From Deltaproteobacteria bacterium (GTDB lineage: Bacteria > Desulfobacterota > Syntrophia > Syntrophales > UBA2210), in contig JAPLJO010000040.1 of the NCBI GenBank assembly GCA_026388515.1, forward strand, positions 1,825-65,824: a stretch of DNA of 64,000 nucleotides. The letters are read 5' to 3'. The notes beneath the pieces were generated by a model that was given only the letters and a program-made list of their open reading frames with translations, was not told the DNA's origin and did no database searches. The position numbers and the translations under genes were made by a program. This document shows positions 1,163 through 36,723 of the stretch, piece after piece (within the stretch, counting starts at the first letter, position 1; every line of letters starts with the position of its first letter).

Positions 1163-1231
1163 TAAAGGTTAATAGCTTGTAGGATAAGCTGGGTTTAATT
1201 CAGAACTGTCTTTTTGTGGGGATCTCAAACA

Positions 1232-4200
1232 ATGCAATGCCCAACCTGCAAAACAAAAAACCCTACAAAGAAGAAGTTCTGCGGGAAATGTGGCGCAAAG
1301 TTAGTTGCGCTCTGTCCCAACTGCCAAGCAGAGAATCCACCGGATGATAAATTCTGTGGTGACTGCGGTTACGATTTAAGCGTACCCGCTACTAAGGTCC
1401 CACAACCTCCTAAAGAAGAAACTCACCCTACTATTTTAATCACCGATCACGAACGTAAATACGTCACTGTCCTCTTCTCCGACCTCTCCGGCTACACCGC
1501 CATGACTGAGAAACTTGATCCGGAAGAAGTCAAAGAAATCATGGGCAGAATCTTTGGGGAGATTGCCCAGGTGGTGGTCAAATACGAGGGCTTTATTGAA
1601 AAGTTCGTGGGCGATGCCATCCTGGCCTTGTTTGGAGTTCCCAAAACCCACGAGGATGATCCTGTCAGAGCAATACGCGCTGCCCGTGAAATTCATGAAC
1701 TCGTAAGGAGAATGAGTCCTCCCCTTGAAAAGAGAATTGGAAGATCTCTCTATATGCACACCGGTATCAACACTGGCCTTGTAGTGACAGGTGAACTGAA
1801 TCTCGAAAAAGGGACTCACGGCGTTTTGGGAGATACAATCAACATGGCTTCCAGATTATCTGGTCTTGCCAAGACCGACGAAATAATCGTAGGTCTTGAA
1901 ACCCATCATCAGGCGGAGGGGTATTTTAATTTTGAAACAATTGAACCCGCCAAGGTAAAAGGTAAGGAAGAGGATATCCTGACTTATAAAGTCCTCTCCC
2001 CCAAGGAAGCTCCCACCAAAACTCATCGTTTATCAGGCGTCCGTGCGGAACTGATTGGCCGCCGTGTCGAAATGCGACAACTGAAAGAGGCTGTTGATAA
2101 TCTCAAGCAGGGCAGATCATCCATTTTCTCAATCGTGGGAGATCCTGGAACCGGGAAAAGCCGCCTTGTGGAAGAGTTCAGGAACAGTTTAGATCTTGCT
2201 GCCACCCAGTGGAGAGAAGGCCATGCCTACGCCTATTCACAGAACATACCGTACTTCCCCCTTATAGATTTACTTAATCGTGCCTGGCAGATCAAGGAAG
2301 GAGATCCTCCGGAACAGGTCAGGCAGAAGGTGGAGAAGGGAACTAAAGCCCTCATAGCTGACCGGGAAGAGCTGGTTCCTTACATGGGCAGTCTCTATTC
2401 TCTTCCCTATCCTGAAACTGAACAGGTAGGCCCTGAAACCTGGAAGGCACGGCTCCATGAAGCCATGCAGCTTATTGTCACCAACCTCTGCAAGAGAGCG
2501 CCTACGATTGTGTGTATCGAGGACCTTCATTGGGCAGATCCTTCATCCATTGAACTTCTGAAAAACATACTTACAGACCTCAAATTCCCTGTTCTTTTTA
2601 TCTGCATCTACCGTCCGTCCTTCAGCCTCTTCACCAGCCACCTGATAAGCAGTTTACGAACTTACCAAGAGATCAGACTCCAAGATCTTTCCTCCTCAGA
2701 GTCCCAGGATATGGTGGAATCACTGCTGAAGACTAAAGACATCCCCGCTGATTTAAGGAAGTTCATCCAGGACAAGGTGGAAGGCAATCCCTTTTATCTG
2801 GAAGAAGCCATCAACGCCCTTATTGAGTCAGATGTCCTGGTGCAGGAAGAGAATATATGGAAACTCACCAAACCGATAACCGAAGCTAATATACCCTATA
2901 CGGTACAAGGTATTATATCTGCCAGACTTGATCGATTGGAAAGAGAAACCAAGCGTATTCTCCAGGAAGCTTCGGTTATTGGTAGATCATTTTTGTATGA
3001 CATACTCAGAAGAATCACTGAATTGAAAGAACACGTTGACAGAAGTCTTAACGGACTGGAGAGGTTGGACCTTATCCGCACAAGAACCTTACAGCCTGAC
3101 CTGGAATATATCTTCAAACACGCCTTAACCCAGGAGGTAGTCTACAACGGGATATTGAGAAAAGAGCGTCAGCACATTCATGAAAAGATAGCTCAGGTGA
3201 TGGAGGAATTGTTTCATGACCGGCTGCCCGAATTCTATGAGACTTTGGCCTACCACTTCAGGCAGGGCCGTTCCATTATAAAGGCAGTGGATTACCTGAT
3301 GAAGGCTGCCGAGAAGAGTTTCAGTAGATATGCCGTTGATGAAGCACATGAGTACTATCGGGAAGCCTTTGACCTCCTTACCAGCAAGTCAGATAAATCT
3401 AAGGAAGAGAATAAACTTCTTGTCGATCTCCTCCTCGACTGGGCAGTGGTCTATTATCATCGGGGAATTTACAATGAACTGTTAGATTTATTTCAGAAAC
3501 ATAAAAATTTGGCCATATCTCTGGAGGATAATGCCAGACTGGGGATGTTTTATAATTGGATGGGCGGGGCATTAAACAGATTGGAGAGACTCCGGGAATC
3601 CTATCAATATTTGTCTAAAGCTCTTGAGATTGGAAAAGAGCTGGGGGATGAAAAAATAACCGGCTATGCATATGGTTGGCTCATCTATACCTGTGCTGAT
3701 CTCGGACGATTGGACGAAGCTGTTGAGTTTGGAGAGAAGGTAAAAGCATTGGACGTCTATAAGTCTGACAAGGAGCTTTTTAGACTATCAACAGTCGCAA
3801 TGGGAGGAACATACTTTTTCAGAGGAGAGGGAAGGAAAGCCCATGAAGAAGGGGATGTCCTTATGGAGTATGGTCAGAAGCACTCCGAAGGAGCATGCAT
3901 TACACAGGGCCACGAGACGCATGGAAATGGCTATATGGCAATCGGGGATATTCCCAACGCTATAGAGTGCTACAAGAGGACAATCCAAACTGCATTAGAA
4001 CCTGTATTTGCCATCACTGCAAAAGTATTTCTTGGATATGCCTATGTTGTCAATGGCCAGTATGCGGAGGCTGAAACTGTGCTGAATGAAGTAACAGAAC
4101 TTTGTGAACACCAAGGTTATGGTTTCATGGGAAGTGCCGCTAAGGCCTCATCAGGTATTGTCATGATCACCAAGGGGAATTTCGAGCAGGGGATTGAGGT

Positions 4201-4600
4201 CGTGAAAGATGTGATGAAAAGTTATATCAACAATGAGAGTTGGTGGAGATATGCCTTAGTGAATTCAATGCTCGGTAGGGTCTATCTGCAAATCTACCAG
4301 GCATTCGGGAATATGAATGATTTTTCATCCATGGGACAAAGTGCAGAGTTTCTTGTGAAGACCGCTCCTGTTGCTCATGAGAAGGCGGAGGTATATTTAA
4401 CGACGGCCATTAAGAAAGCAAAGGAAATTGGAGCAAGCAGTATTCACGGACAATCGTGTCTGGAAATGGGACGGTTGCATAAGCTGCGAGGGAAAACTGA
4501 CGATGCCAGAAAATACATCGCCGATGCAATCCACATCTTGGAGGAGTGTGAGGCTGATGTCTTCCTGAAGCAGGCCAAGGAGGAACTGGCTTCCCTTTGA
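1232..4600 (+). CDS. Double zinc-ribbon / class III adenylate-guanylate cyclase domain / AAA (STAND-type) NTPase / TPR multidomain protein
   Basis: N-terminal zinc ribbons: CPTC..CGKCG and CPNC..CGDCG. Cyclase motifs: VLFSDLSGYT, KFVGDAILALFG, GDTINMASRL. Walker A is GDPGTGKS and Walker B-like is CIEDLHWAD. A long TPR-like helical tail follows. I chose the ATG at 1232 rather than the track's TTG at 1214. Confidence 0.85.
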   Translation: MQCPTCKTKNPTKKKFCGKCGAKLVALCPNCQAENPPDDKFCGDCGYDLSVPATKVPQPPKEETHPTILITDHERKYVTVLFSDLSGYTAMTEKLDPEEVKEIMGRIFGEIAQVVVKYEGFIEKFVGDAILALFGVPKTHEDDPVRAIRAAREIHELVRRMSPPLEKRIGRSLYMHTGINTGLVVTGELNLEKGTHGVLGDTINMASRLSGLAKTDEIIVGLETHHQAEGYFNFETIEPAKVKGKEEDILTYKVLSPKEAPTKTHRLSGVRAELIGRRVEMRQLKEAVDNLKQGRSSIFSIVGDPGTGKSRLVEEFRNSLDLAATQWREGHAYAYSQNIPYFPLIDLLNRAWQIKEGDPPEQVRQKVEKGTKALIADREELVPYMGSLYSLPYPETEQVGPETWKARLHEAMQLIVTNLCKRAPTIVCIEDLHWADPSSIELLKNILTDLKFPVLFICIYRPSFSLFTSHLISSLRTYQEIRLQDLSSSESQDMVESLLKTKDIPADLRKFIQDKVEGNPFYLEEAINALIESDVLVQEENIWKLTKPITEANIPYTVQGIISARLDRLERETKRILQEASVIGRSFLYDILRRITELKEHVDRSLNGLERLDLIRTRTLQPDLEYIFKHALTQEVVYNGILRKERQHIHEKIAQVMEELFHDRLPEFYETLAYHFRQGRSIIKAVDYLMKAAEKSFSRYAVDEAHEYYREAFDLLTSKSDKSKEENKLLVDLLLDWAVVYYHRGIYNELLDLFQKHKNLAISLEDNARLGMFYNWMGGALNRLERLRESYQYLSKALEIGKELGDEKITGYAYGWLIYTCADLGRLDEAVEFGEKVKALDVYKSDKELFRLSTVAMGGTYFFRGEGRKAHEEGDVLMEYGQKHSEGACITQGHETHGNGYMAIGDIPNAIECYKRTIQTALEPVFAITAKVFLGYAYVVNGQYAEAETVLNEVTELCEHQGYGFMGSAAKASSGIVMITKGNFEQGIEVVKDVMKSYINNESWWRYALVNSMLGRVYLQIYQAFGNMNDFSSMGQSAEFLVKTAPVAHEKAEVYLTTAIKKAKEIGASSIHGQSCLEMGRLHKLRGKTDDARKYIADAIHILEECEADVFLKQAKEELASL

Positions 4601-4791
4601 TTAATGGTTGAATGCATGCATTTTGGAGAGAATAGCCGGCCCAACGATTAAAGGAAATTATCGTCTTGTTTTTCGTGGAAAAATAATCCTGTCAATTTAA
4701 GTGAAATAATGGCGGTATTCTCAGTCCTAATGTGATACGTGCACTCGTACTGGATTGGGAGAAAAATAATTATGTGGAGAAAGGGACCCTG

Positions 4792-6144
4792 ATGAAGCCG
4801 CATCATCTCAAGGTGTTTTTAATAATCGCGATAGTGCTCTTTCAATCTCAAATTTTTTCACCCAGGAATGTGTATGCCTGGACGGAGCAGCCTCTCATTT
4901 CATATCGGATACTTCAAGTAATCCCGGAAGTGCGCAATGCAGAGCCGGTAGTTGTGGAAGACCTCGATTCATTTCTTATAGCCGAAGAAAAGAACCTTGC
5001 AGATTTGCTCGCACAAGAGGAAAAATGGGCGCGGCAGAATCTTTCATACTACAAGCCCCTGCCTGATGTGCTGGCATTCCAGCCAACCGGCTACCGCAGT
5101 GACGTACGGCAACGCTTCTGTCACGCCATCAGAGTCAATCCCGACTTTTACTTCAGCTTGTATCTTCAGTTGGTGCCGGGTGAAGATGCCGGCGGCAGGA
5201 CCGCCATTACGCCGAGGGAAATCACGTTTCTCAAAGACACCTCGGACTGGAAAAATACGAAATTTGCAGAACTGATTGCAGGGGAATCAGTATCTTCCCT
5301 TGATGTGGTAGTGACAGCAACTGAAGAACCGGATTTTGGCCTGGACGTGGGGCTGTATGAAGATAACGGCACTGATTTCGGAAAAGTGTATGGATTCGGC
5401 ACACAACCATTCGGGAATCCGAACCTCGAGTATGGCACCCAGGCACCTTTCCACATGGGGTACTACCATGAAGCGGGCATCATCAACACCTTTGCTGAAT
5501 TCATAACGCAGACATACCCTGAATACCGCATACATCTCTATCAGAGTCTCTCACGCTTTGCGTTTGAGACCGGACATAACTACTGGGGGTGGCGTTTCAT
5601 GGGTATGGGCCTTCAATACGTCATAGATTTAAACCAGCCCTATCATGTGAGTCTGTTGCCCGGCGTCAGTGTTGTAAAGATGATCTGGATGAGTATGCTT
5701 GATATGGTAGGAATCAGCGGTCCTAAAGCCGATGCTATTCAGCTTGTCTCAAACAGACACACGGCACTGGAAAAATTCCAGCAACTCATTCTTTATCGCG
5801 CGTATCAGGACGAAGTCAACGACAGTCCCATATTCGTGGTGCTGCGTACTATAGGGGAATGCCCACCATGGAATGATAGGATGCCACGTGATGTCATTAC
5901 AGTAGAGAGCTGTGCGCGTGCCAGGGAAACAGACAGGCTTCTTGAGGAGACAATGCCGGAGCGCTTCGTATCCGATCCAAGCTTCGAACTCGGCACCAGT
6001 CCCGAAAGAGACGATATAATTTTGAGGATACAGGAAAAGGGTGGACAGCAAGCAATCGACCGACTGACTGCTCAGGTGCGGGATCTCCTTAAACCGCTTC
6101 CCTCGTATACGTGTTCATATGTCAGAAGTATCAGGAATAAATAG
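4792..6144 (+). CDS. Secreted protein with zinc-dependent phospholipase C / S1-P1 nuclease-fold-like motifs (tentative)
   Basis: The signal peptide MKPHHLKVFLIIAIVLFQSQIFSPRNVYA|WTEQ would expose an N-terminal Trp, as in mature Bacillus PLC. MGLQYVIDLNQPYH resembles LSLHYLGDVNQPMH. RHTALEKF resembles HSKYENF (H-x3-E). Some ligand positions are not conserved. Confidence 0.5.
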   Translation: MKPHHLKVFLIIAIVLFQSQIFSPRNVYAWTEQPLISYRILQVIPEVRNAEPVVVEDLDSFLIAEEKNLADLLAQEEKWARQNLSYYKPLPDVLAFQPTGYRSDVRQRFCHAIRVNPDFYFSLYLQLVPGEDAGGRTAITPREITFLKDTSDWKNTKFAELIAGESVSSLDVVVTATEEPDFGLDVGLYEDNGTDFGKVYGFGTQPFGNPNLEYGTQAPFHMGYYHEAGIINTFAEFITQTYPEYRIHLYQSLSRFAFETGHNYWGWRFMGMGLQYVIDLNQPYHVSLLPGVSVVKMIWMSMLDMVGISGPKADAIQLVSNRHTALEKFQQLILYRAYQDEVNDSPIFVVLRTIGECPPWNDRMPRDVITVESCARARETDRLLEETMPERFVSDPSFELGTSPERDDIILRIQEKGGQQAIDRLTAQVRDLLKPLPSYTCSYVRSIRNK

Positions 6145-6171: not shown

Positions 6172-6933
6172 TTACATTCCCATCATGGAGCGAATCTCAG
6201 CATACTGCAGGTTGTACACCTGCAGGTAGTTGCCGGCGATCCATTGATTTTCAGCCTCCCAGTAATCATTTCGGTATCCCCCCTGCTGCACCTTGTTGGC
6301 CGCAAGGGTCAACATAATGGCCTGATCCTTCTGCCGTGCGGTGAATTTAACAGGAACACCCGCCCAGTCGATGATATTATCAAGAAGCGCTCCGCTGCTG
6401 GCGTACTGGTATGGTTCATAATACATGCGTTCCTTATCGGTGTAGGTACGTATCGTTTTCTTATCGTACTTGTCCACAATAGTGATGGAACGATAGGGAC
6501 GATAAGCAACCGCAAACAAGGTATATCCTTCCCCCTTCGCACCCTTGGCAGTATCGATGCTTGTCAATATGTAGTCCCAGGAATTAGGAATATCGGAAGC
6601 TTTCAGTATCCTCTGGAAGCTCTGAGTCGCCTGCTCCATTGTAGTAAATGCCTGGCCCGTATCGCCATCAGGAGAAACAACGTAGAAATTCTGGTTGTAT
6701 GCCGCACGATAGGTATCCGCTATGGTAATGGGTTTTCCGGCGATGAGCAGTTGTTTGTTGATTTCCTGTAATCCCGTGTCCGCTTCGACAAAGTAAGTTA
6801 ATGCCGCCATACCTTGTCCGAACCCCACCGCCATCTGTGTCCCTGTCATAGTACCCATTGAAGCAACGTTAAGCGGACAGGCATACAGACATATTGCCAG
6901 TAACAGTGAGAAAATCAGATATATTTTCTTCAT
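6172..6933 (-). CDS. Hypothetical secreted protein / possible lipoprotein
   Basis: N-terminal signal MKKIYLIFSLLLAICLYAC with a possible lipobox (LYAC). The composition is protein-like and the opposite-strand ORF looks spurious. No family recognised. Confidence 0.65.
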   Translation of the reverse strand: MKKIYLIFSLLLAICLYACPLNVASMGTMTGTQMAVGFGQGMAALTYFVEADTGLQEINKQLLIAGKPITIADTYRAAYNQNFYVVSPDGDTGQAFTTMEQATQSFQRILKASDIPNSWDYILTSIDTAKGAKGEGYTLFAVAYRPYRSITIVDKYDKKTIRTYTDKERMYYEPYQYASSGALLDNIIDWAGVPVKFTARQKDQAIMLTLAANKVQQGGYRNDYWEAENQWIAGNYLQVYNLQYAEIRSMMGM

Positions 6934-7405: not shown

Positions 7406-9613
7406 ATGATTATAGCGAATCAAAATGAAATTGCCCGCTTGCTATCAACAATATTTCCCCCGGATTCTTCGGAGAAATTTGCCGAGTCATTATTGGGCGA
7501 AATAGCTCCTCATGCAGAAAAGATGAATCTTCGTGAAAGAGACATTCTCATCCGTCAGGGTGATTCGAGTTTTTCAATTTATTATGTGATGAATGGGCGC
7601 TTTCATGTAATGACAGAACAGCCTGACGGAAGTACAACAGTAGTGGCAGAAATTGGACCGGGGGAACCAATCGGTGAGATACAGGCGCTGACAGGGGGCG
7701 TCCATACCGCGAATGTTCAAGCTGCCACTGATTCCACGGTAATCAAGCTGTCACAAAGAGCTGTTGAAATCATTATGGAGAAGGCGCCTGAGACTGTACA
7801 CCGACTATTGAAAACTGCCCGCATGCGCCTTCTGCGCAGCCAGTTGGCAATTTTGCTGCCCTCACTATTCGATTCACTCGATGACGAAGCGCTCCGGGAT
7901 ATACAGGGTAAGGTTCAATGGCATCATCTGCGCAGTGGGGAGATGCTTTTCCGCGAAGGCGACCCAGGCGACAGACTCTATATCGTAATACTCGGGCGCC
8001 TGCGGGTAACTCTCGAGGATAGCAAAGGAGAAAAAATAATAAATGAGGTGGCACGGGGAGAGATTATCGGTGAAATGGCGCTTTTCTCGTCCGAGCCGCG
8101 TTCCGCAACGGTGTATGCCGTGCGCGATTGTGACCTTGTCAGTATCTCACAGCCGGCGTTTGATGAGATTATAAAAAAATATCCCCAGGTGATGAGGACG
8201 ATAACCAAAGTACTCATCAACCGGCTTGCGAGGAGGAATCGTGAGGTGCCGAGTAAAGGCAGTGTCACAAATATTACGGTCATTCCCGCGAGCTACAATG
8301 CACCTGTCCATGAGTTTTCCGTCAGATTGTCAAAGGCACTCTCACTCCACGGCAAAGTTCTTCATATAACCGGCAGACTTGTCTGTGATAAATTCGGCAC
8401 TTCCCTGCTTCGAGATCCAGTGCCAAAGGAAACGTTGCAGGTAAAACTCGCGGCGTGGCTGGATGAGCAGGAGACAAAATATCCTTTCATCATTTACGAA
8501 GCCGACCCATCTTTATCACCGTGGACGCTGTGTTGTCTAAGCCAGGCGGATCAGATTCTGGCACTGGCACAAGCTTCGGACACGCCCGGATATGGTCCTG
8601 TGGCTTCATCGGTGCTTCCTTCGGTCACTCGCGCAACATGTTCAATGGTGATCCTCCATCCAGAGAGCGAAACGCTCCCATCCAATACCGGTGAATGGTT
8701 GAGGTCCTGGAATGCCGTGGACCATCAGCATGTCCACTGGGACATTACTTCTGATATCGAGCGCGTAGCACGTTACATTACGAACACATCAATGGGCCTT
8801 GTCCTTAGTGGTGGCGGGGCGCGGGGATTTGCTCACATCGGTGTGATTCGCGCCCTTAGAGAAGGAGGTATCCCTATTGATATGATCGGCGGAACGAGTA
8901 TGGGTGCTGTGATTGCAAGCGCCTATGCCTTGGGATGGGACGATCAGAAAATATATGATGAGACAAAAAACATTTTTTTTATAAATAATCCACTCAGTGA
9001 TTACACGTTTCCAATCGTATCTTTTTTCCGATGCCGCAATCTTGATAGAGTGCTTGAAAATAGTTACGGCGATACCTGCATAGAAGATCTCTGGATACGC
9101 TACTTCTGCATATCAACCAATCTCTCAATCGCCGAGATTGAAATACATGATCGTGGTTCATTGTGGAAGGCCGTACGCGCAAGCATCTCATACCCCGGTA
9201 TTGCCGTCCCTGTGGTGAAAGGCAACCATTTGTTGATTGACGGTGGTGTACTCAATAACCTTCCTATTGATATCATGAAAAAGCGCTGCAGGGGATCGGT
9301 TATTGCAGTAGATGTGAGCATCGAAGAAGACCTTACCGTAAATTATCCGGAAGTTCCCTCACCATGGAGAATGCTCTGGGACCGCGTTTCTCCGGTTAAG
9401 AAATACAGTAAATTTCCCAACATTCTGGATATTCTCACACGAACGGCAGAATTAAGCTGCATCAACAGGAAACAACAAACAATAGTGGACGCTGACTTAT
9501 ATCTGCGCCCTCCGGTTGATAATTTCAAGCTCCTGGATTTTAAATCGTTCGATAAGCTCGTTGATATCGGCTACGCCTACGCAAAAGAGGAAATAAAGAA
9601 GTGGGATAATTAA
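7406..9613 (+). CDS. Patatin-like phospholipase with two N-terminal cyclic-nucleotide-binding domains (NTE/PNPLA6-like architecture)
   Basis: CNB cassettes: GEPIGEIQALTGGVHTANVQA and GEIIGEMALFSSEPRSATVYA. Patatin motifs: SGGGARGFAHIGV (oxyanion), GTSMGA (GxSxG) and IDGGVLNNLP (catalytic Asp). AGGAGA RBS is present. Confidence 0.9.
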   Translation: MIIANQNEIARLLSTIFPPDSSEKFAESLLGEIAPHAEKMNLRERDILIRQGDSSFSIYYVMNGRFHVMTEQPDGSTTVVAEIGPGEPIGEIQALTGGVHTANVQAATDSTVIKLSQRAVEIIMEKAPETVHRLLKTARMRLLRSQLAILLPSLFDSLDDEALRDIQGKVQWHHLRSGEMLFREGDPGDRLYIVILGRLRVTLEDSKGEKIINEVARGEIIGEMALFSSEPRSATVYAVRDCDLVSISQPAFDEIIKKYPQVMRTITKVLINRLARRNREVPSKGSVTNITVIPASYNAPVHEFSVRLSKALSLHGKVLHITGRLVCDKFGTSLLRDPVPKETLQVKLAAWLDEQETKYPFIIYEADPSLSPWTLCCLSQADQILALAQASDTPGYGPVASSVLPSVTRATCSMVILHPESETLPSNTGEWLRSWNAVDHQHVHWDITSDIERVARYITNTSMGLVLSGGGARGFAHIGVIRALREGGIPIDMIGGTSMGAVIASAYALGWDDQKIYDETKNIFFINNPLSDYTFPIVSFFRCRNLDRVLENSYGDTCIEDLWIRYFCISTNLSIAEIEIHDRGSLWKAVRASISYPGIAVPVVKGNHLLIDGGVLNNLPIDIMKKRCRGSVIAVDVSIEEDLTVNYPEVPSPWRMLWDRVSPVKKYSKFPNILDILTRTAELSCINRKQQTIVDADLYLRPPVDNFKLLDFKSFDKLVDIGYAYAKEEIKKWDN

Positions 9614-9717
9614 ATGCAGGACACCGTAAAATACTGAATTGATAGAAGTGACATGAGCACGCAGTAGGTCATCCTGAAAATTCTTCTTATTTTGAATCAC
9701 GTCAGGAGATATTGAAA

Positions 9718-10359
9718 ATGCATCATGATGCAGACGCACGGTATGGGACGATTCCGGTGAAAGACAAGGTAGAATTTCTCACGGGCGTGTACGACAGGAT
9801 GACTGCGCTCAACACCAATGCCGATACCAAGGCGGGTGTCATGCTTACCTTCCACAGTATCTGGGCCATCTGCTTCGGCCCGAACGTTACGAAATTGATT
9901 ATCCAGCTTCCCGCACCACCGCTCAAAATGACTCTGTGGGTGGTGTCGTTTCTGTTAACTTGTGCCCTGTTTATCGCATTCATCCGTTCAGCATATTAGG
10001 CTGTCCTGATACTCCTGCCCAGGATTGATGCTCAAAAAGGTGAGGAACCAGCGAAACGGAGCCTCGTCTTTTTTGTCGATGTTGTTAAAATAGCAGGGAC
10101 CAATGTCGCCGAGAAATCAGCAAATTACAAAAAGCAGCTTGACAGAACAAGCTATGAGGACCTTGTCGATGACCTTGTGTATCGAATCAACGATATCGCC
10201 AATGTAGTGAATCAGAAATATGAGTGCACGAAAAAGGCAATAAAGCTCTCGCTATACACGTTTCTCCTGTGGGCAATCTCTCTTTTCTCAGTGATTATTA
10301 TGAACATGTTCTGGAGTGGGGGATACATTCATGCAATGCCCGAAATGCCAATTCGATAA
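9718..10359 (+). pseudogene. DUF5706/PycTM-like (Pycsar-effector-type) multi-TM protein interrupted by a single in-frame TAG at 9997-9999
   Basis: Track ORFs 9712-9999 and 10177-10359 are in the same frame, and the 177 nt between them has no other stop. The joined product has NADTKAGVML, ..LLPRID..SLVFFVDVV.. and DLVYRINDIANVVNQKYECTKKA, which match my recollection of the DUF5706/PycTM pattern. Confidence 0.55.
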
Positions 10360-10414
10360 TCCTGATGGACTTAACTTCTGCGGTCAATGTGGTTGCCAGT
10401 TAGAACAAACATGA
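10331..10414 (+). pseudogene. 27-codon zinc-ribbon stub, likely the truncated N-terminus of a larger zinc-ribbon protein
   Basis: MQCPKCQFDNPDGLNFCGQCGCQLEQT* parallels the cyclase N-terminus MQCPTCKTKNPTKKKFCGKCGAKL. It stops after one ribbon and overlaps the upstream gene end by 29 nt. Confidence 0.35.
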
Positions 10415-10534
10415 GTTGATACCGAAATTCAGTAAATGGTTAGTGAATTTATAAATAGTTAATAGGGAATGTCTTCGCGAAGGATGAGAAGAAACAGGAC
10501 AATACCCTTGTAAAGCCCGCGTCGGTTGGGGTTC

Positions 10535-10963
10535 TTACATGTGGTAGAGTTCGCTGCCGAGAATTCGAATCCAGTTGTTCTTCAGTACTTTCAGTGCCTG
10601 TTCCACAGGCTCCACGCCCAGAATCAGCACGGTGATTTCACCGGTCCCGATGCAGGGATATATGTAATCAACATTGATAGTGGCTTTCTTGAGCGGTTTG
10701 AGTACGGCGTTCAGTCCGCCGGGATGGTGCGGTACCACGCAGGCAATGACATCTTTTACATCAATGGCGTATCCCGCGGTCTTCATCACGTTGATTGCTT
10801 TTTCAGGGTCATTGGCGACAAAGTGCAGCTTTCCTTCTTTGCCCTGTGCGGTGAAGTAAAACGCGATGATATTAATCCCGTTGGTCCCTAAAAGGTCGCT
10901 GACACTCGACAGTGTACCGGGTTCGTTTTTCAGGGAATGGTCAATCTGTTTGACGGTTTTCAT
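10535..10963 (-). CDS. ACT-domain (small-molecule-binding) protein, tandem ACT
   Basis: Two repeats of the ACT-like pattern (LKNEPGTLSSVSDLLGTNGINI.. and PHHPGGLNAVLKPLKKATINV..). AAGGAG RBS is present. It is last in the oxidoreductase operon. Confidence 0.7.
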   Translation of the reverse strand: MKTVKQIDHSLKNEPGTLSSVSDLLGTNGINIIAFYFTAQGKEGKLHFVANDPEKAINVMKTAGYAIDVKDVIACVVPHHPGGLNAVLKPLKKATINVDYIYPCIGTGEITVLILGVEPVEQALKVLKNNWIRILGSELYHM

Positions 10964-10965
10964 CT

Positions 10966-11514
10966 TTACGCTCCTTTAATCACAAGCTCGGCACCGAGAG
11001 TGAGGCTCTTTTCGTTGATGGCCATTATGTCGGATTTTTTGCCTTTGAAAATTTCATGAAGAGCCTTCACGATTGATTCAATTGATGTCATTTTGGTGGC
11101 GGCGATAAATCCTCCGAGCATGATGATGTTGACGGAACGGTCATCGTTGAAATGTTTCTTCGCCAGTTCGTTCGCCGGTACACGATATACGGTGATGTCA
11201 TCGCGCGATGTTTTACGGTCGACGAGACTGGAGTTCAGCACAATCAGCCCACCTCTCGTGAGGGCACTCTCAAATTTGATAAGCGAGGGATTGTTCAATA
11301 TGACCGCATGGTCGGGGGACGATGCGACGGGCGAGAAGATTTCTTCATCGGAAACGGCGATCGTGCAGTTCGCGGTACCTCCCCGCATTTCCGCGCCGTA
11401 TGACGGAAGATAGGTCACTTCCTTGCCTTCCCTCATCGCCGCCACGGCGTACAGGTACCCCATCATGAGTACACCCTGGCCACCGAATCCTGCGAAGACG
11501 GTTTTTTTCAACAT
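10966..11514 (-). CDS. 2-oxoacid:ferredoxin oxidoreductase, gamma subunit
   Basis: FAGFGGQGVLMMG..LPSYGAEMRGG is typical of POR/KOR gamma subunits. The operon order delta-alpha-beta-gamma resembles OorDABC/KorDABG. Confidence 0.85.
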   Translation of the reverse strand: MLKKTVFAGFGGQGVLMMGYLYAVAAMREGKEVTYLPSYGAEMRGGTANCTIAVSDEEIFSPVASSPDHAVILNNPSLIKFESALTRGGLIVLNSSLVDRKTSRDDITVYRVPANELAKKHFNDDRSVNIIMLGGFIAATKMTSIESIVKALHEIFKGKKSDIMAINEKSLTLGAELVIKGA

Positions 11515-11525
11515 GGCTAAACGAC

Positions 11526-12281
11526 CTATTGTATCTTATCTCCCACAGTGTCCTTGATGACTTTGAGGGGGTATGTTTTCGTAATGGTTTCCTCTATCCA
11601 TTTACAGGAATCGACGGTGTTCATCTTCCAGTTCGTAGGGCAGGGCGAGAGTACCTCGACAAGGGAAAAACCAAGACCCGCCATCTGGATTTTAAATGCT
11701 CTGGTGATGGCTCGTTTCGTCTTCCTGATGTTTGCCGGGCTGTTCACCGTCGTCCGTTCAATGTAGACGCTCCCTTTTGTGAGGGCAAGCATCTCGCTCA
11801 GGTCAATGGGAGCTCCGTCCCGTGCGTAATCGCGTCCGCCGGGTGTGGTTGAAGAGTTCTGGCCGATGAGCGTCGTCGGCGCCATCTGTCCCCCCGTCAT
11901 TCCGTAGCAGCCGTTGTTCACAAAAATGGTGGTGATGTTTTCACCGCGATTTGCCGCGTGAATCGTCTCCGCGGTACCGATCGCCGCGATATCGCCGTCA
12001 CCCTGGTAGGTGAAAACCACTCTGTCGGGCAGAGACCGTTTGATGCCCGTTGCCACGGCGGCACATCTCCCGTGGGGTGATTCTCCCATATCGATGTCGA
12101 GATAATCGTAGGCAAGCACCGCACAGCCGGCGGGAGGCACTCCCACCACCTTGTGGGCAATGTCAAGTTCTTCTATGATTTCCGCAATCAGGCGGTGCAG
12201 GATGCTGTGGCCGCACCCCGGGCAGTAGTGAAACACGGCTTTTTTCAGTAATTTCGGTCGCTCAAAAACCTTTTTCTCCAT
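11526..12281 (-). CDS. 2-oxoacid:ferredoxin oxidoreductase, beta (TPP-binding) subunit
   Basis: It has the CPGCGH motif, the GDGD..AIG TPP-binding motif and VNNGCYGMTGGQ. Confidence 0.9.
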   Translation of the reverse strand: MEKKVFERPKLLKKAVFHYCPGCGHSILHRLIAEIIEELDIAHKVVGVPPAGCAVLAYDYLDIDMGESPHGRCAAVATGIKRSLPDRVVFTYQGDGDIAAIGTAETIHAANRGENITTIFVNNGCYGMTGGQMAPTTLIGQNSSTTPGGRDYARDGAPIDLSEMLALTKGSVYIERTTVNSPANIRKTKRAITRAFKIQMAGLGFSLVEVLSPCPTNWKMNTVDSCKWIEETITKTYPLKVIKDTVGDKIQ

Positions 12282-13364
12282 CTATTGTTCCTCTTCAAGG
12301 TTCTGGCGGTAGTAGAGGCTGCTGATCACCTTCGATATTTCATCGGGGGTGGAAATAATGCCGCCCGGCCGCCCGTAAAAATGCACCTTGCTTCTTCCTT
12401 CGAGAGAGAGCTTCACATCTTCAACCATTTGACCTGTACTCATTTCGAACACGAGAAAATGCTTTACAATCCTGCTCAATTCAACAATGGCGCCCTTGGG
12501 GAAAGGATAGAGTGAAATGGGGCGCAGGAGGCCCACCTTCAATCCCATTTCGCGCACTCTCTTTATGGCCCCCTTGGCGATTCGTGCCGCCGTGCCGTAG
12601 GCGATGACCACGAGGTTGGCGTCGTTCGTCAGATAGCTTTCATGCAGGATAAGGTCTCTGGTGATGCTTTCGTATTTTCGTTGCAGCTTCCAGTTGTGTT
12701 CTTCCATGTCGCGGGTATCGAGGATGAGCGACTTTATGAACCGGCTCGGACGCTGCGAGGCGCCATTGAGGATGTATGATTTTGGAGGTAGTGAGCGGGG
12801 ATCGATGGGTTCAGGGAGTATCACCGGTTCCATCATCTGGCCCATCATGCCATCGATGAGAATGATGACGGGAGATCGGTACCGGTCGGCACACTCGAAG
12901 GCTTTTACCGTCAGATCCGCCTGTTCCTGCCCTGAGGCGGGTGCCAGCACGATTGAATGGTAATCACCATGGCCGCCGCCTTTTGTCGCCTGAAAATAGT
13001 CGCCCTGGGCGGGAGCGATGTTGCCGAGACCCGGTCCGCCTCTCATTGTATTGATGATGACTGCGGGCAGTTCTGATGCCGCAAGGAATGAGATGCCTTC
13101 CTGTTTAAGGCTGAGACCGGGGCTTGAAGAACTCGTCATGGCACGGGCGCCCGTCATGGCGGCACCGAGTACCATGTTGATCGCGGCGATCTCGCTTTCC
13201 GCCTGGATAAACGTGGCGTCGCTTACTTTTGCCATGGCGCCCGCCATGTACTCGGTCAATTCATTCTGCGGTGTGATGGGATACCCCGCGTAGAAACGGC
13301 AGCCGGCACGGATTGCAGACTCGGCGATCACGTGGCTCCCACGCATCAACATCTTTTCACTCAC
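12282..13364 (-). CDS. 2-oxoacid:ferredoxin oxidoreductase, alpha subunit
   Basis: The N-terminus LMRGSHVIAESAIRAGCRFYAGYPITPQNE is typical of alpha subunits. It abuts the beta gene with no gap. Confidence 0.9.
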   Translation of the reverse strand: MSEKMLMRGSHVIAESAIRAGCRFYAGYPITPQNELTEYMAGAMAKVSDATFIQAESEIAAINMVLGAAMTGARAMTSSSSPGLSLKQEGISFLAASELPAVIINTMRGGPGLGNIAPAQGDYFQATKGGGHGDYHSIVLAPASGQEQADLTVKAFECADRYRSPVIILIDGMMGQMMEPVILPEPIDPRSLPPKSYILNGASQRPSRFIKSLILDTRDMEEHNWKLQRKYESITRDLILHESYLTNDANLVVIAYGTAARIAKGAIKRVREMGLKVGLLRPISLYPFPKGAIVELSRIVKHFLVFEMSTGQMVEDVKLSLEGRSKVHFYGRPGGIISTPDEISKVISSLYYRQNLEEEQ

Positions 13365-14097: not shown

Positions 14098-14189
14098 GAA
14101 GAACAAATCAGGAATTGCTGAGATGATTGAAACCGGTACTTTTAAGGAAGTCACGCAGATAAAGATAAGTGGGGAACCGGGAGGTTGAC

Positions 14190-14420
14190 ATGGGAGCACG
14201 GATAACGGCTTTTATAGAAGCACAATGCACGAGATGCGGAGTCTGTCTCAATAAATGCCCGGTGCTGGCGTTGCCGCTCGATGAAGCAAAAGCTGAGTTC
14301 GAGCGGTTGCTCGACAGGCGAACGCCCTCCGCAGTGCTCTCACGGTGCAATTCCTGTATGTCCTGCAATCTCTATTGCCCCGAAAAGGCGAATCCTTATA
14401 ATCTGATCCTCGAACGATGA
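14190..14420 (+). CDS. 2x[4Fe-4S] ferredoxin-like module (N-terminal part of an HdrD/GlpC-type Fe-S protein), ending at an in-frame TGA
   Basis: CTRCGVCLNKCP and CNSCMSCNLYCP motifs, with a GGGAGG RBS before the ATG at 14190. It is in the same reading frame as the next ORF. Confidence 0.6.
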   Translation: MGARITAFIEAQCTRCGVCLNKCPVLALPLDEAKAEFERLLDRRTPSAVLSRCNSCMSCNLYCPEKANPYNLILER

Positions 14421-14429
14421 ACTGAATGG

Positions 14430-15428
14430 ATGAATGCCATCCCGGGCCCTGATGACAGAGTGCTTCTCATAGGCAACTATACCCATCTGTTTCCCTTTAT
14501 AATCGGCGGGAGTGCGCTTCTCGATCATTTCAAGCCCATTGACAGGATCGATCACTGGGAAGGCGGCGCCTATCTGTACCAGGGCGGATATCTCGATCTC
14601 GTCAGGAAAATAGCTCTCTCGACCAGGCGTGATTTCGATGAATGGGGCGCGAAGGAGGTGGTCTTTCTCACCGATGCAGTACACCATCTTTGCAGCTCGG
14701 TACATCCCCGTGAGATGGGAGTATCTCATGAAAGAACGTTCGTCACTCTTAATGAGTGGCTCGCCGGAGAGCTTCAAGCGGGGGCCATTACCTTGCCTGC
14801 GGCACCCCTCGGCATGAGGGTGACCGTGCACGATAATTGCTATTCCAAGGTACACGGCGGATTGTACTGGGATACTCCCCGGGAACTGCTTCAACGGTGC
14901 GGCTGCACGGTGGTCGAGATGCGCCACATAAAAAAGGATTCGCTCTGCTGCGGCTTCGGTGCGGGTGCGTCATGGGTCCGGAACATGTCAATGCCCTTTG
15001 ACATCATATCGGAAGGGGCAAAAAAGATACGCGAAGCGGAAGACACCGGTGCGGAGGCGCTTGTTTCCTATTGCAGCGGGTGCATCTATCTTTTATGGGC
15101 GGCGCGCGAGCTGACGGGAAGCAAGATAAAAATTTACCATCTCCTTGAAGTCGTCAGAATGGCGATGGGTGAAACAATCAACTACCCGGAGGACCACGTG
15201 CGAAGGGCCTGGGATGTCATCGCGATTATCACCTACCAGCTCGGCATCTCTCTCTTTCAGAAGAATTTCTTTATAAAAGAACTATCCTATGATAACAGCA
15301 AATCAACATTTTCGCCTGGAAACCGGAGGATCCTGAAATCAATTCGATGGATCCTCGGTCCGCTGGTAATGCGGGCTGTCTACGGACGTGTATTCAGGGC
15401 GATGATGCCTTTGATAAGGACCCGCTGA
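14430..15428 (+). CDS. CCG-domain (cysteine-rich, heterodisulfide-reductase D-like) protein, C-terminal part of the split Fe-S protein
   Basis: HDNCYSK...LCCGFGAG...YCSGC is a CCG-domain signature. It starts 9 nt after the TGA in the same frame, and no clear RBS is visible. Confidence 0.6.
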   Translation: MNAIPGPDDRVLLIGNYTHLFPFIIGGSALLDHFKPIDRIDHWEGGAYLYQGGYLDLVRKIALSTRRDFDEWGAKEVVFLTDAVHHLCSSVHPREMGVSHERTFVTLNEWLAGELQAGAITLPAAPLGMRVTVHDNCYSKVHGGLYWDTPRELLQRCGCTVVEMRHIKKDSLCCGFGAGASWVRNMSMPFDIISEGAKKIREAEDTGAEALVSYCSGCIYLLWAARELTGSKIKIYHLLEVVRMAMGETINYPEDHVRRAWDVIAIITYQLGISLFQKNFFIKELSYDNSKSTFSPGNRRILKSIRWILGPLVMRAVYGRVFRAMMPLIRTR

Positions 15429-35189: not shown

Positions 35190-35345
35190 GGTTGACTCCT
35201 TAACCTTTATCGTGACGTCGCGACGCTAACATATTTATACGGCTTAATCAATTGCTTGTTGAGTGATCGTGACGGGTATTGCCCAATCCACACAATCATG
35301 GTAGGTAAGTATCCGTTTTCCGTTTCTAAAAAATCGGAGGGACAC

Positions 35346-36723
35346 ATGAAGATATCCAGCGTTCATGAGATGAGAGCGCTTGACCGCAACGCAGTGTCAA
35401 TCTATGGCATTGATGAACTGATTTTGATGGAAAATGCTGGCACGGCGGTCTGCCGTGTTATTGAGAACGAATTTGGTATGAAGGGGAAAACTTTTCTCGT
35501 ACTGTGTGGCCCCGGGAACAATGGAGGCGACGGGTTTGTCGTGGCACGGAAGATACATTCAAACGGCGGTCACGTCGAGGTTGTCATCGCAGGGGCCAGG
35601 GATGCCTATAAGGGTCCGGCAAAGAAGAATCTCGACATAATAATGCGATTGCCCGTCAAAATCCGTGATATCACATCGGTCAGGTCACTCAGCGGACCGG
35701 TCAGCAGAAGTGAGGCTATCATCGACGCGATATTCGGGACAGGCATTACCCGTCGCATTGAAGGGATGCACCGCGACATTATCGAGAGGATAAACAAAAG
35801 CGGCAGGACGATATTCAGTGTCGATATACCGTCAGGGGTGAACGGCGACACGGGGCAGATAATGGGTATCGCGGTGCGTGCGGATCATACAGTGACCTTC
35901 GGCCTTCCGAAACGGGGAAACATGCTCTTCCCCGGCTGCGATTTATGCGGGAAGCTGTATGTATGCCATATATCATTTCCGCCGGAGCACTACGACAACG
36001 GTGCGATTAAAGTTGCCGTTAATAAACCTCCTCCGCTCCCGGCGAGATACAGGGATGCGCACAAAGGCAGTTGTGGTGACGCCCTTTTCATTGCAGGTTC
36101 GGCAAATTATTACAGCGCCCCATATTGTGGTCCTCGGGCCCGGAATATCCACAGACAACGAAACACAGAAGCTCGCATGCCGCCTTGCCGTGCGCATTGA
36201 AAAACCCCTTATTATAGATGGTGACGGTATCACCGCACTGATTCCAGAGATCAAATCTATGGCAAAACGTAAAAAGCCGACAGTTCTCACACCTCACCCC
36301 GGCGAGATGTCACGAATCACCGGGCGAAGCGTCAATGAGATTGAAGAAATGAGGATCCCCCTGCTGCAGGAAACGGCGCGTGCGTTACATTCAATAGTCG
36401 TATTGAAAGGAGCCCATACGCTGATAGGATATCCCGATGGAAGGGTAGCAGTGAACATGAGCGGCAATGCCGGTATGGCGACGGCGGGATCCGGAGATGT
36501 TCTTACGGGAACAATCGCAGCGATGTATGGACTGGGACTGTCCATTGAAGATGCTGTAGCAAAAGGAGTGTTCATCCATGGCCTCAGCGGGGACCTCGCT
36601 GCCGGGGATATCGGCGAAGACGGAATAACGGCAGAAGACATACTCAATTATCTGCCGTCCGCCGTTGCTGCGGATCGGGATGACGAGGCATTGCGGAAGC
36701 GCTACGAAATTCCGGTTATATAG
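35346..36723 (+). pseudogene. nnr: Bifunctional NAD(P)H-hydrate repair enzyme (epimerase + ADP-dependent dehydratase) with internal deletion and frameshift near 36117-36124
   Basis: The N-domain CGPGNNGGDGFVVAR is intact. The dehydratase domain starts HKGSCGDALFIAGSANYYSAP in frame 3 and continues as HIVVLGPGIS...TPHPGE...GSGDVLTG in frame 1. About 50 residues normally found between these blocks are absent. Confidence 0.7.

Follow-up and report, generated by a model that had tools for sequence, protein, structure and literature searches.

In the Pycsar anti-phage system, PycTM is described as the effector of transmembrane type (Tal et al. 2021, cited through PMC11224242 and PMC12489823). That such effectors are activated by a cyclic nucleotide and impair the membrane is likewise taken from studies of Pycsar (PMC11224242, PMC12489823, PMC13069673). 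By analogy, intact members of the subfamily discussed here would be activated by a cyclic nucleotide that an adjacent cyclase produces and would then damage the membrane, and the NTPase-TPR part of that cyclase would serve as the sensor. In Pfam the family is PF18967 (PycTM, 'Pycsar effector protein', formerly DUF5706), with a gathering score of 27.2 bits. No mention of the name 'DUF5706' was found in the literature searched.

Here we analyze a gene of this family that is interrupted by an amber codon. It lies in a 64-kb stretch of DNA from a Deltaproteobacteria bacterium, referred to as the window. The analysis makes it likely that the locus is a real gene for a recombinant PycTM membrane effector, recently inactivated to a pseudogene. 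The features on which the argument depends are given below. L001 and L002 are related loci, each with two tandem PycTM genes (copies 1 and 2), L016 is a contig from a second assembly, and P0001 is an intact homologue.

1214-4600, plus strand: candidate signal generator, intact, 1128 aa, with double zinc ribbon, class III nucleotide cyclase, AAA_16 and TPR (Pfam)
7406-9613, plus strand: patatin phospholipase, intact, 735 aa, with two cNMP-binding domains, an NTE P-loop and a patatin domain (Pfam); same position in L001 and L002
9680-9819, plus strand: upstream region and first ~34 codons, apparently derived from copy 1; of 49 informative sites, 41 agree with copy 1 and 2 with copy 2
9718-10314, plus strand: PycTM-family gene, probably chimeric and now a pseudogene; 198 codons and the former stop position; matches PF18967 across the stop; 89% identity to the intact 198-aa P0001
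9820-9830, plus strand: putative crossover block GCCGATACCAA, 11 nt coding for the conserved ADTK, identical in both parental copies; last copy-1 site 9819, first copy-2 site 9831
9831-10311, plus strand: remaining ~161 codons, apparently derived from copy 2; of 137 informative sites, 127 agree with copy 2 and 4 with copy 1; L001 copy 2 is 97.3% identical at the nucleotide level
9997-9999, plus strand: premature amber TAG at codon 94, where the 17 aligned homologues have Q, K or E; present in L016
10312-10359, plus strand: lost native stop (TGG for TGA) and 15-codon read-on to TAA; codon 199 is TGA in all four L001 and L002 genes
10331-10414, plus strand: zinc-ribbon mini-ORF of 27 codons; below-threshold Pfam matches to DZR (24.0 bits, cut-off 27.3) and Zn_Ribbon_1 (20.7 bits, cut-off 25)

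The Interrupted Gene and Its Family

The ORFs at 9712-9999 and 10177-10359 lie in a common frame, and the TAG at 9997-9999 is the sole stop within 9712-10359, as the initial annotation had stated. That annotation joined them into a product of 213 aa. The single frame stands, but the last 15 residues of this product are non-native, since all homologues end in MNMF and four orthologous or paralogous genes carry TGA at codon 199. The probable start is the ATG at 9718, with AGGAG 9 nt upstream, and the first ten residues, MHHDADARYG, are identical in the window gene and the homologue P0004. The 5' region, the ribosome-binding site and the start of the gene are all intact. Re-initiation beyond the TAG was considered and rejected: the first in-frame ATG, GTG or TTG is the GTG at 10177, which lies 60 codons further on and has no obvious ribosome-binding site.

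The joined protein matches PF18967 over residues 79-180 with 31.2 bits (E 3e-7), above the Pfam threshold and across the stop. The C-terminal half alone scores 24.9 bits, under the threshold, and the N-terminal half alone gave no match in the Pfam scan. The window copy thus has no uninterrupted coding sequence for the full domain (TAG at codon 94). The assignment to the PycTM/DUF5706 family, originally made from motifs, is borne out by this match. The conserved blocks as they appear in the alignment are ADTKA, the invariant P101-R102, a block around F119 and D121, and YRINDIA...K167. The intact homologues P0001, P0004 and P0045 cover the PADLOC PycTM models (PDLC02363-5) from end to end (E about 1e-22). 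The family therefore qualifies as a PycTM/PycTIR-type effector by the Pycsar definition, the window copy being disrupted. Several CBASS '2TM effector' models of PADLOC are also matched over their full length by intact homologues, with E from 1e-11 to 1e-14. The initial annotation had pointed out that the product has no cNMP-binding domain of its own. This absence is normal for the family, because the PycTM models of PADLOC span no more than 154-165 positions and a stand-alone membrane protein is its usual form.

A search of 5.8 billion protein clusters recovered 61 relatives, nearly all of 196-199 aa and all with a precomputed PF18967 match. The best homologue aligns end to end with the joined protein at 89% identity (E 1e-111), a similarity well outside what chance would give, and about 60 homologues are intact 198-aa proteins. 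An intact form of the window protein itself was not found in the protein collection, where the best match is at 89%. In a profile search of 1.84 billion representatives, 134 relatives had E < 1e-3 and only 4 had E < 1e-30. The immediate subfamily is narrow, to judge from these searches, and the loci that carry it belong to Syntrophaceae, Smithella or 'Deltaproteobacteria' metagenome-assembled genomes (MAGs).

The AlphaFold model of P0001 (mean pLDDT 88) shows helices at residues 14-60, 68-97 and 146-197, with lower confidence for 98-145, and strong hydrophobic segments are centered on residues 77-92 and 183-189. When PDB sequences were searched with the family profile, no match at E <= 1 emerged. 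Foldseek comparison of the model with the PDB yielded only non-specific long-helix matches, all with E > 0.2, and no fold-based mechanism. The alignment contains 28 invariant positions, 12 of which lie beyond residue 94 (P101, R102, D121, G127, Y137, Y146, R156, D159, V164, K167, F182, W185). According to the model, a 93-aa product would be deprived of these 12 residues, of the cytosolic helical region and of the last membrane helix, and the effector is most likely non-functional.

Probable Chimeric Origin and the Two Stop-Codon Lesions

The contig L001 (ENA ERZ27248148) is syntenic with the window and shows 96-97% identity in the flanks. Its gene order is patatin, PycTM copy 1 (1182-1778, the gene of P0004), PycTM copy 2 (1833-2429, the gene of P0001), ACT and oxidoreductase genes. 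L002 likewise has the patatin gene and two PycTM genes; the window has a single PycTM gene and lacks 651 bp of the two-gene arrangement of L001. A three-way alignment of the window with L001 copy 1 and L001 copy 2 gave the pattern of sites listed above, from which the window gene is best read as a chimera whose 5' end comes from copy 1 and whose remainder comes from copy 2, formed through an in-frame deletion of 651 bp. The copies form two orthologous clades, with identities of 77-87% and 79% within them and 59-65% between them. Since identities are higher within than between clades, the duplication is old and predates the split of L001 and L002, and the single gene of the window is the derived state.

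At codon 94 the copy-2 orthologues of both L001 and L002 have CAG, and their copy-1 genes have GAA. At the protein level the column holds Q in the three closest homologues and E or, most commonly, K in the others, the distant members having mostly K. The earlier suggestion that the two halves are unlikely to be independent genes is consequently upheld, because orthologues carry a sense codon where the window has the stop. On this comparison the TAG is a nonsense mutation, apparently produced by a single C-to-T change from CAG (Gln). A premature stop thus stands against a sense codon in intact orthologues and is reproduced in a second assembly, as befits a pseudogene. The loss of the native stop appends WSGGYIHAMPEMPIR, 15 non-native residues, before the TAA at 10357-10359; all homologues end in MNMF at the corresponding place. 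We read the lost native stop as a possible sign that the 3' end is not under selection in the window.

Comparison of L001 with L002 gave dN/dS of 0.09-0.11 for both copies, which indicates purifying selection on the family. Between the window and L001, the copy-2 part differs by 6 synonymous and 6 non-synonymous changes (dN/dS 0.29; neighbors 0.06-0.20), numbers too small for a decision. The ratio is not clearly above that of the neighbors and carries no signal of long-term relaxed selection. When changes were polarized with P0002 and P0003 as outgroups, most of the amino-acid differences proved to have arisen in L001, and for the copy-2 part only V59, Q94stop and stop199W were left as derived on the side of the window. 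Given so few derived changes, the lesion looks recent. That two of the three affect stop codons is an odd coincidence for random drift.

Genomic Neighborhood

In L001 and L002 the PycTM gene begins 2-80 nt after the patatin gene. By PADLOC matches, the patatin gene upstream of the window copy is also similar to the patatin effectors of CBASS and to the part of PycTIR that binds nucleotides. An exact-product look-up of the window patatin protein returned no record. Downstream, the zinc-ribbon mini-ORF shows 71% identity to the first 24 residues of the cyclase of L012, and in L003 and L006 a cyclase gene of this kind starts directly after the PycTM gene. We therefore read the 27-codon ORF as the likely 5' stub of a deleted zinc-ribbon-cyclase-AAA_16-TPR gene. 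As a separate observation, the stub has no differences from L001 over 84 nt against a regional divergence of 3-5%, which may reflect chance (about 3% probability) or a residual constraint on a mini-protein.

The intact cyclase at 1214-4600 lies 5.1 kb upstream of the PycTM gene with three genes between them; the cyclase sequence that adjoins the PycTM gene is only the 27-codon stub. The intact protein has weak, generic matches to PADLOC PycC models (E 4e-14). Its best solved relatives are ordinary adenylate or guanylate cyclases such as PDB 2w01, and the alignment with 2w01 shows its metal-binding Asp and its N/R motifs. A tblastn search found no further PycTM copy or other cyclase remnant elsewhere in the window. 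The genes at 4732-6144 and 6172-6933, between the cyclase and the patatin gene, encode a protein of 470 aa whose N-terminus is signal-like and, on the opposite strand, a putative lipoprotein of 253 aa; these two proteins have no Pfam or PADLOC match and no homologue in the related loci.

Two further genes of the window are broken. A gene with ferredoxin-type and CCG domains at 14169-15428 is one ORF of 452 aa in L001 and is split in the window into ORFs of 83 and 332 aa. At 14418-14420, where 120 bp are missing relative to L001, an in-frame TGA has arisen at the junction CGA TG|A ACT, and an exact-product look-up of the 332-aa ORF returned no record. The nnr gene (bifunctional NAD(P)H-hydrate repair, 35256-36723) shows a change of frame near 36120-36135: its first ORF corresponds to residues 10-262 of PDB 2ax3 and its second, in another frame, to residues 321-498, ~58 residues being missing. 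It is the third lesion with an internal deletion in the window. These other lesions fit a genome that is accumulating disruptions.

Alternative Explanations

If the amber codon were decoded, by pyrrolysine, a suppressor tRNA or programmed read-through, a full-length protein would be made, perhaps conditionally. The frame after the TAG does stay open and protein-like, lysine occupies the TAG column in most distant homologues, and a pyrrolysine system is encoded by some anaerobic lineages of the Deltaproteobacteria type. TAG is however an ordinary stop here, terminating 11 of the 53 large ORFs of the window (TGA 27, TAA 15), among them the two largest subunit genes of the 2-oxoacid:ferredoxin oxidoreductase. 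Alignments of the POR gamma, beta and alpha products with those of L001 run from end to end at 98-99% identity. On the same stop usage, a genome-wide reassignment of TAG or TGA was rejected. Furthermore, the nearest orthologues have Gln and the column is variable (Q, E or K), so that no special residue is needed. None of the four tRNAs in the 64-kb window (Pro, Leu, Val, Asp) has a CUA anticodon, an Rfam scan of 9000-11000 gave no match, and the RNA fold of the 120 nt that follow the TAG is no more stable than the folds of shuffled sequences (z = -0.8). A promoter and terminator scan revealed nothing above background. The native stop is mutated as well, and the resulting non-native tail speaks for a 3' half that has escaped selection. 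Recoding is thus unlikely, because TAG is a regular stop and neither a suppressor tRNA in the 64-kb window nor an Rfam element or a stable RNA fold around the gene was found, and we consider the production of a full-length protein by this route extremely improbable.

The TAG, and perhaps the fusion too, could also be an artefact of sequencing, assembly or strain mixing, the organism carrying an intact gene or genes. Such a reading could draw on the several structural lesions found within a few kb relative to a 96%-identical contig (the 651-bp fusion, the 120-bp deletion, and the nnr deletion and frameshift), and on the end of contig L015 at 10318, beside a site (10317) that is variable between the window and L001, which hints at mixed strains. 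Against it, a different assembler working on raw reads (Logan, SRR20698648) reproduces window positions 7826-10951 in a contig of 3,126 bp (L016) at 100.000% identity, unbroken through the junction, the TAG and the TGG, and the exact 93-aa truncated product is on record there. The parental copies have only 11 identical bases in common at the L001 junction, too few for a k-mer collapse, and single-base substitutions in a consensus are rare. The Logan match excludes an assembler or polishing artefact as the origin of the TAG; the reads are possibly those behind the window, and a minority intact allele may exist. A search of metagenome contigs with a 38-mer around the TAG (first base N, fitting both alleles) gave no match. 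Overall, an artefact is very unlikely. As a side observation, L015 (Logan, sister run SRR20698647) has 99.9% identity to window 10318-12933 with 3 mismatches and stops one base past 10317, so that strains may co-exist in the samples.

A further alternative accepts the lesion and sees it as adaptive. The 93-residue fragment, an amphipathic helix followed by a helical hairpin, could itself be selected, for example as a partner of other PycTM-like proteins or of the patatin with a dominant-negative or regulatory effect, or else the loss of the effector could have been favored once it was toxic with its cyclase gone. The intact 5' region, ribosome-binding site and start would agree with this, as would the presence of only one derived non-synonymous change besides the nonsense mutation in the copy-2 part of the window lineage. 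Moreover, the cyclase that adjoins the gene was already a stub, and toxic abortive-infection effectors are often lost. Yet no homologue of ~93 aa occurs among the relatives, nearly all of which are 196-199 aa long, and the short entries look like fragments at contig ends. The N-terminal fragment alone, as noted, has no Pfam match, and in L001 both copies are intact and under purifying selection despite sharing the dead cyclase stub. We regard this alternative as unlikely, though less so than the two preceding ones, and retain the recently inactivated recombinant effector as the preferred reading.

A Scenario for the Decay of the Locus

In the inactivation scenario, the ancestor would have carried two tandem 198-codon PycTM paralogues after a cNMP-binding patatin gene, followed by a zinc-ribbon-cyclase-AAA_16-TPR gene. 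The body of the cyclase gene would first have been deleted, leaving the 27-codon stub, an event common to the window and its 96%-identical relative. In the window lineage, an unequal in-frame crossover at the 11-nt block would then have fused the 5' end of copy 1 to copy 2 with the loss of 651 bp. A C-to-T change would have converted Gln-94 from CAG to TAG and an A-to-G change the native TGA to TGG, either before or after the crossover. Translation should now stop behind residue 93, where the first strongly hydrophobic helix ends.

Taken alone the finding is routine, a case of ordinary gene decay within a cluster for cyclic-nucleotide signaling, in which a defence-type effector is lost by one base change. 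It offers a clean and dated example of the erosion of a module, through the deletion of a cyclase, the fusion of paralogues over 11 nt, and a nonsense mutation combined with a stop loss. The more interesting lead is the pairing of this narrow PycTM subfamily with large sensor-type cyclases in syntrophic anaerobes.

Pairing of PycTM Genes with Large Cyclases

All loci outside the window lineage (L003-L014) have a large cyclase-AAA_16-TPR gene immediately next to the PycTM gene; the two genes share their orientation and are separated by as few as 13 nt, and the cyclase directly adjoins the PycTM gene in 11 other loci. The partner cyclases are multidomain proteins of 1,100-1,200 aa. The wider flanks of the related loci hold mostly metabolic genes and are not obvious defence islands.

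Several loci show variations. In HGW-Deltaproteobacteria-2 (L009/L010, 5290-8910 and 1299-2138) the partner is a TIR_2-cyclase-AAA_16-TPR protein of 1206 aa, and in L009 TIR_2 takes the place of the zinc ribbon. Three genes upstream in the same genome (L009) is a gene with a Pfam match to Anti-Pycsar Apyc1/metallo-beta-lactamase. In L006 (4565-5796) the PycTM-cyclase pair is followed by a stand-alone cNMP-binding protein of 144 aa and a metallo-beta-lactamase-fold protein of 266 aa, and then by cyclase fragments, an arrangement that looks like a writer/reader/eraser cassette in its putative domain content. In L011 (1366-8887) and L008 (18-9731) several ORFs (cyclase-AAA_16 and TPR pieces) take the place of a single partner cyclase gene, and such genes stand in tandem; partner cyclase genes in some MAG loci may be prone to decay or to assembly problems.

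We tentatively raise the possibility, which we consider somewhat doubtful, that PycTM proteins of 198 residues and their constant cyclase neighbor (zinc ribbon or TIR, class III cyclase, AAA_16, TPR) constitute an undescribed Pycsar-like module of Syntrophales. The cyclase would contain a STAND-like sensor, some loci would add a cNMP reader and a metallo-beta-lactamase-fold candidate phosphodiesterase, and the window would represent a module that was rewired to a patatin phospholipase and is decaying. If the pairing is a real signaling or immunity system, Pycsar-like logic would extend to cyclases with a built-in NTPase-TPR sensor.

Comparison with Known Systems

The gene resembles the PycTM of Pycsar in sequence family (Pfam, PADLOC), in being a small stand-alone membrane protein that lacks a cNMP-binding domain, and in having relatives that lie beside a class III nucleotide cyclase. 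It differs in that the window copy is, on present reading, chimeric and cut at codon 94, and in that the partner of the subfamily is a multidomain cyclase of 1,100-1,200 aa instead of a small PycC. With the CBASS 2TM effectors it shares the full-length model matches obtained by intact homologues and two strongly hydrophobic segments. However, its vicinity contains no CD-NTase gene, and its partner belongs to the class III cyclases.

The neighboring genes invite comparisons of their own. Multidomain proteins of the mycobacterial Rv0386 type combine a class III cyclase, an ATPase and TPR. The product of 1214-4600 and the partner genes are similar in combining Guanylate_cyc, AAA_16 and TPR; they depart from it in their N-terminal double zinc ribbon (TIR_2 in L009), in the lack of a detected HTH in these proteins, and in their consistent pairing with a PycTM gene. 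The gene upstream of the window copy, with its two cNMP_binding domains, NTE_Ploop and Patatin, is like the NTE-family cNMP-binding patatin phospholipases; its proximity to a PycTM gene is seen only in the window, L001 and L002.
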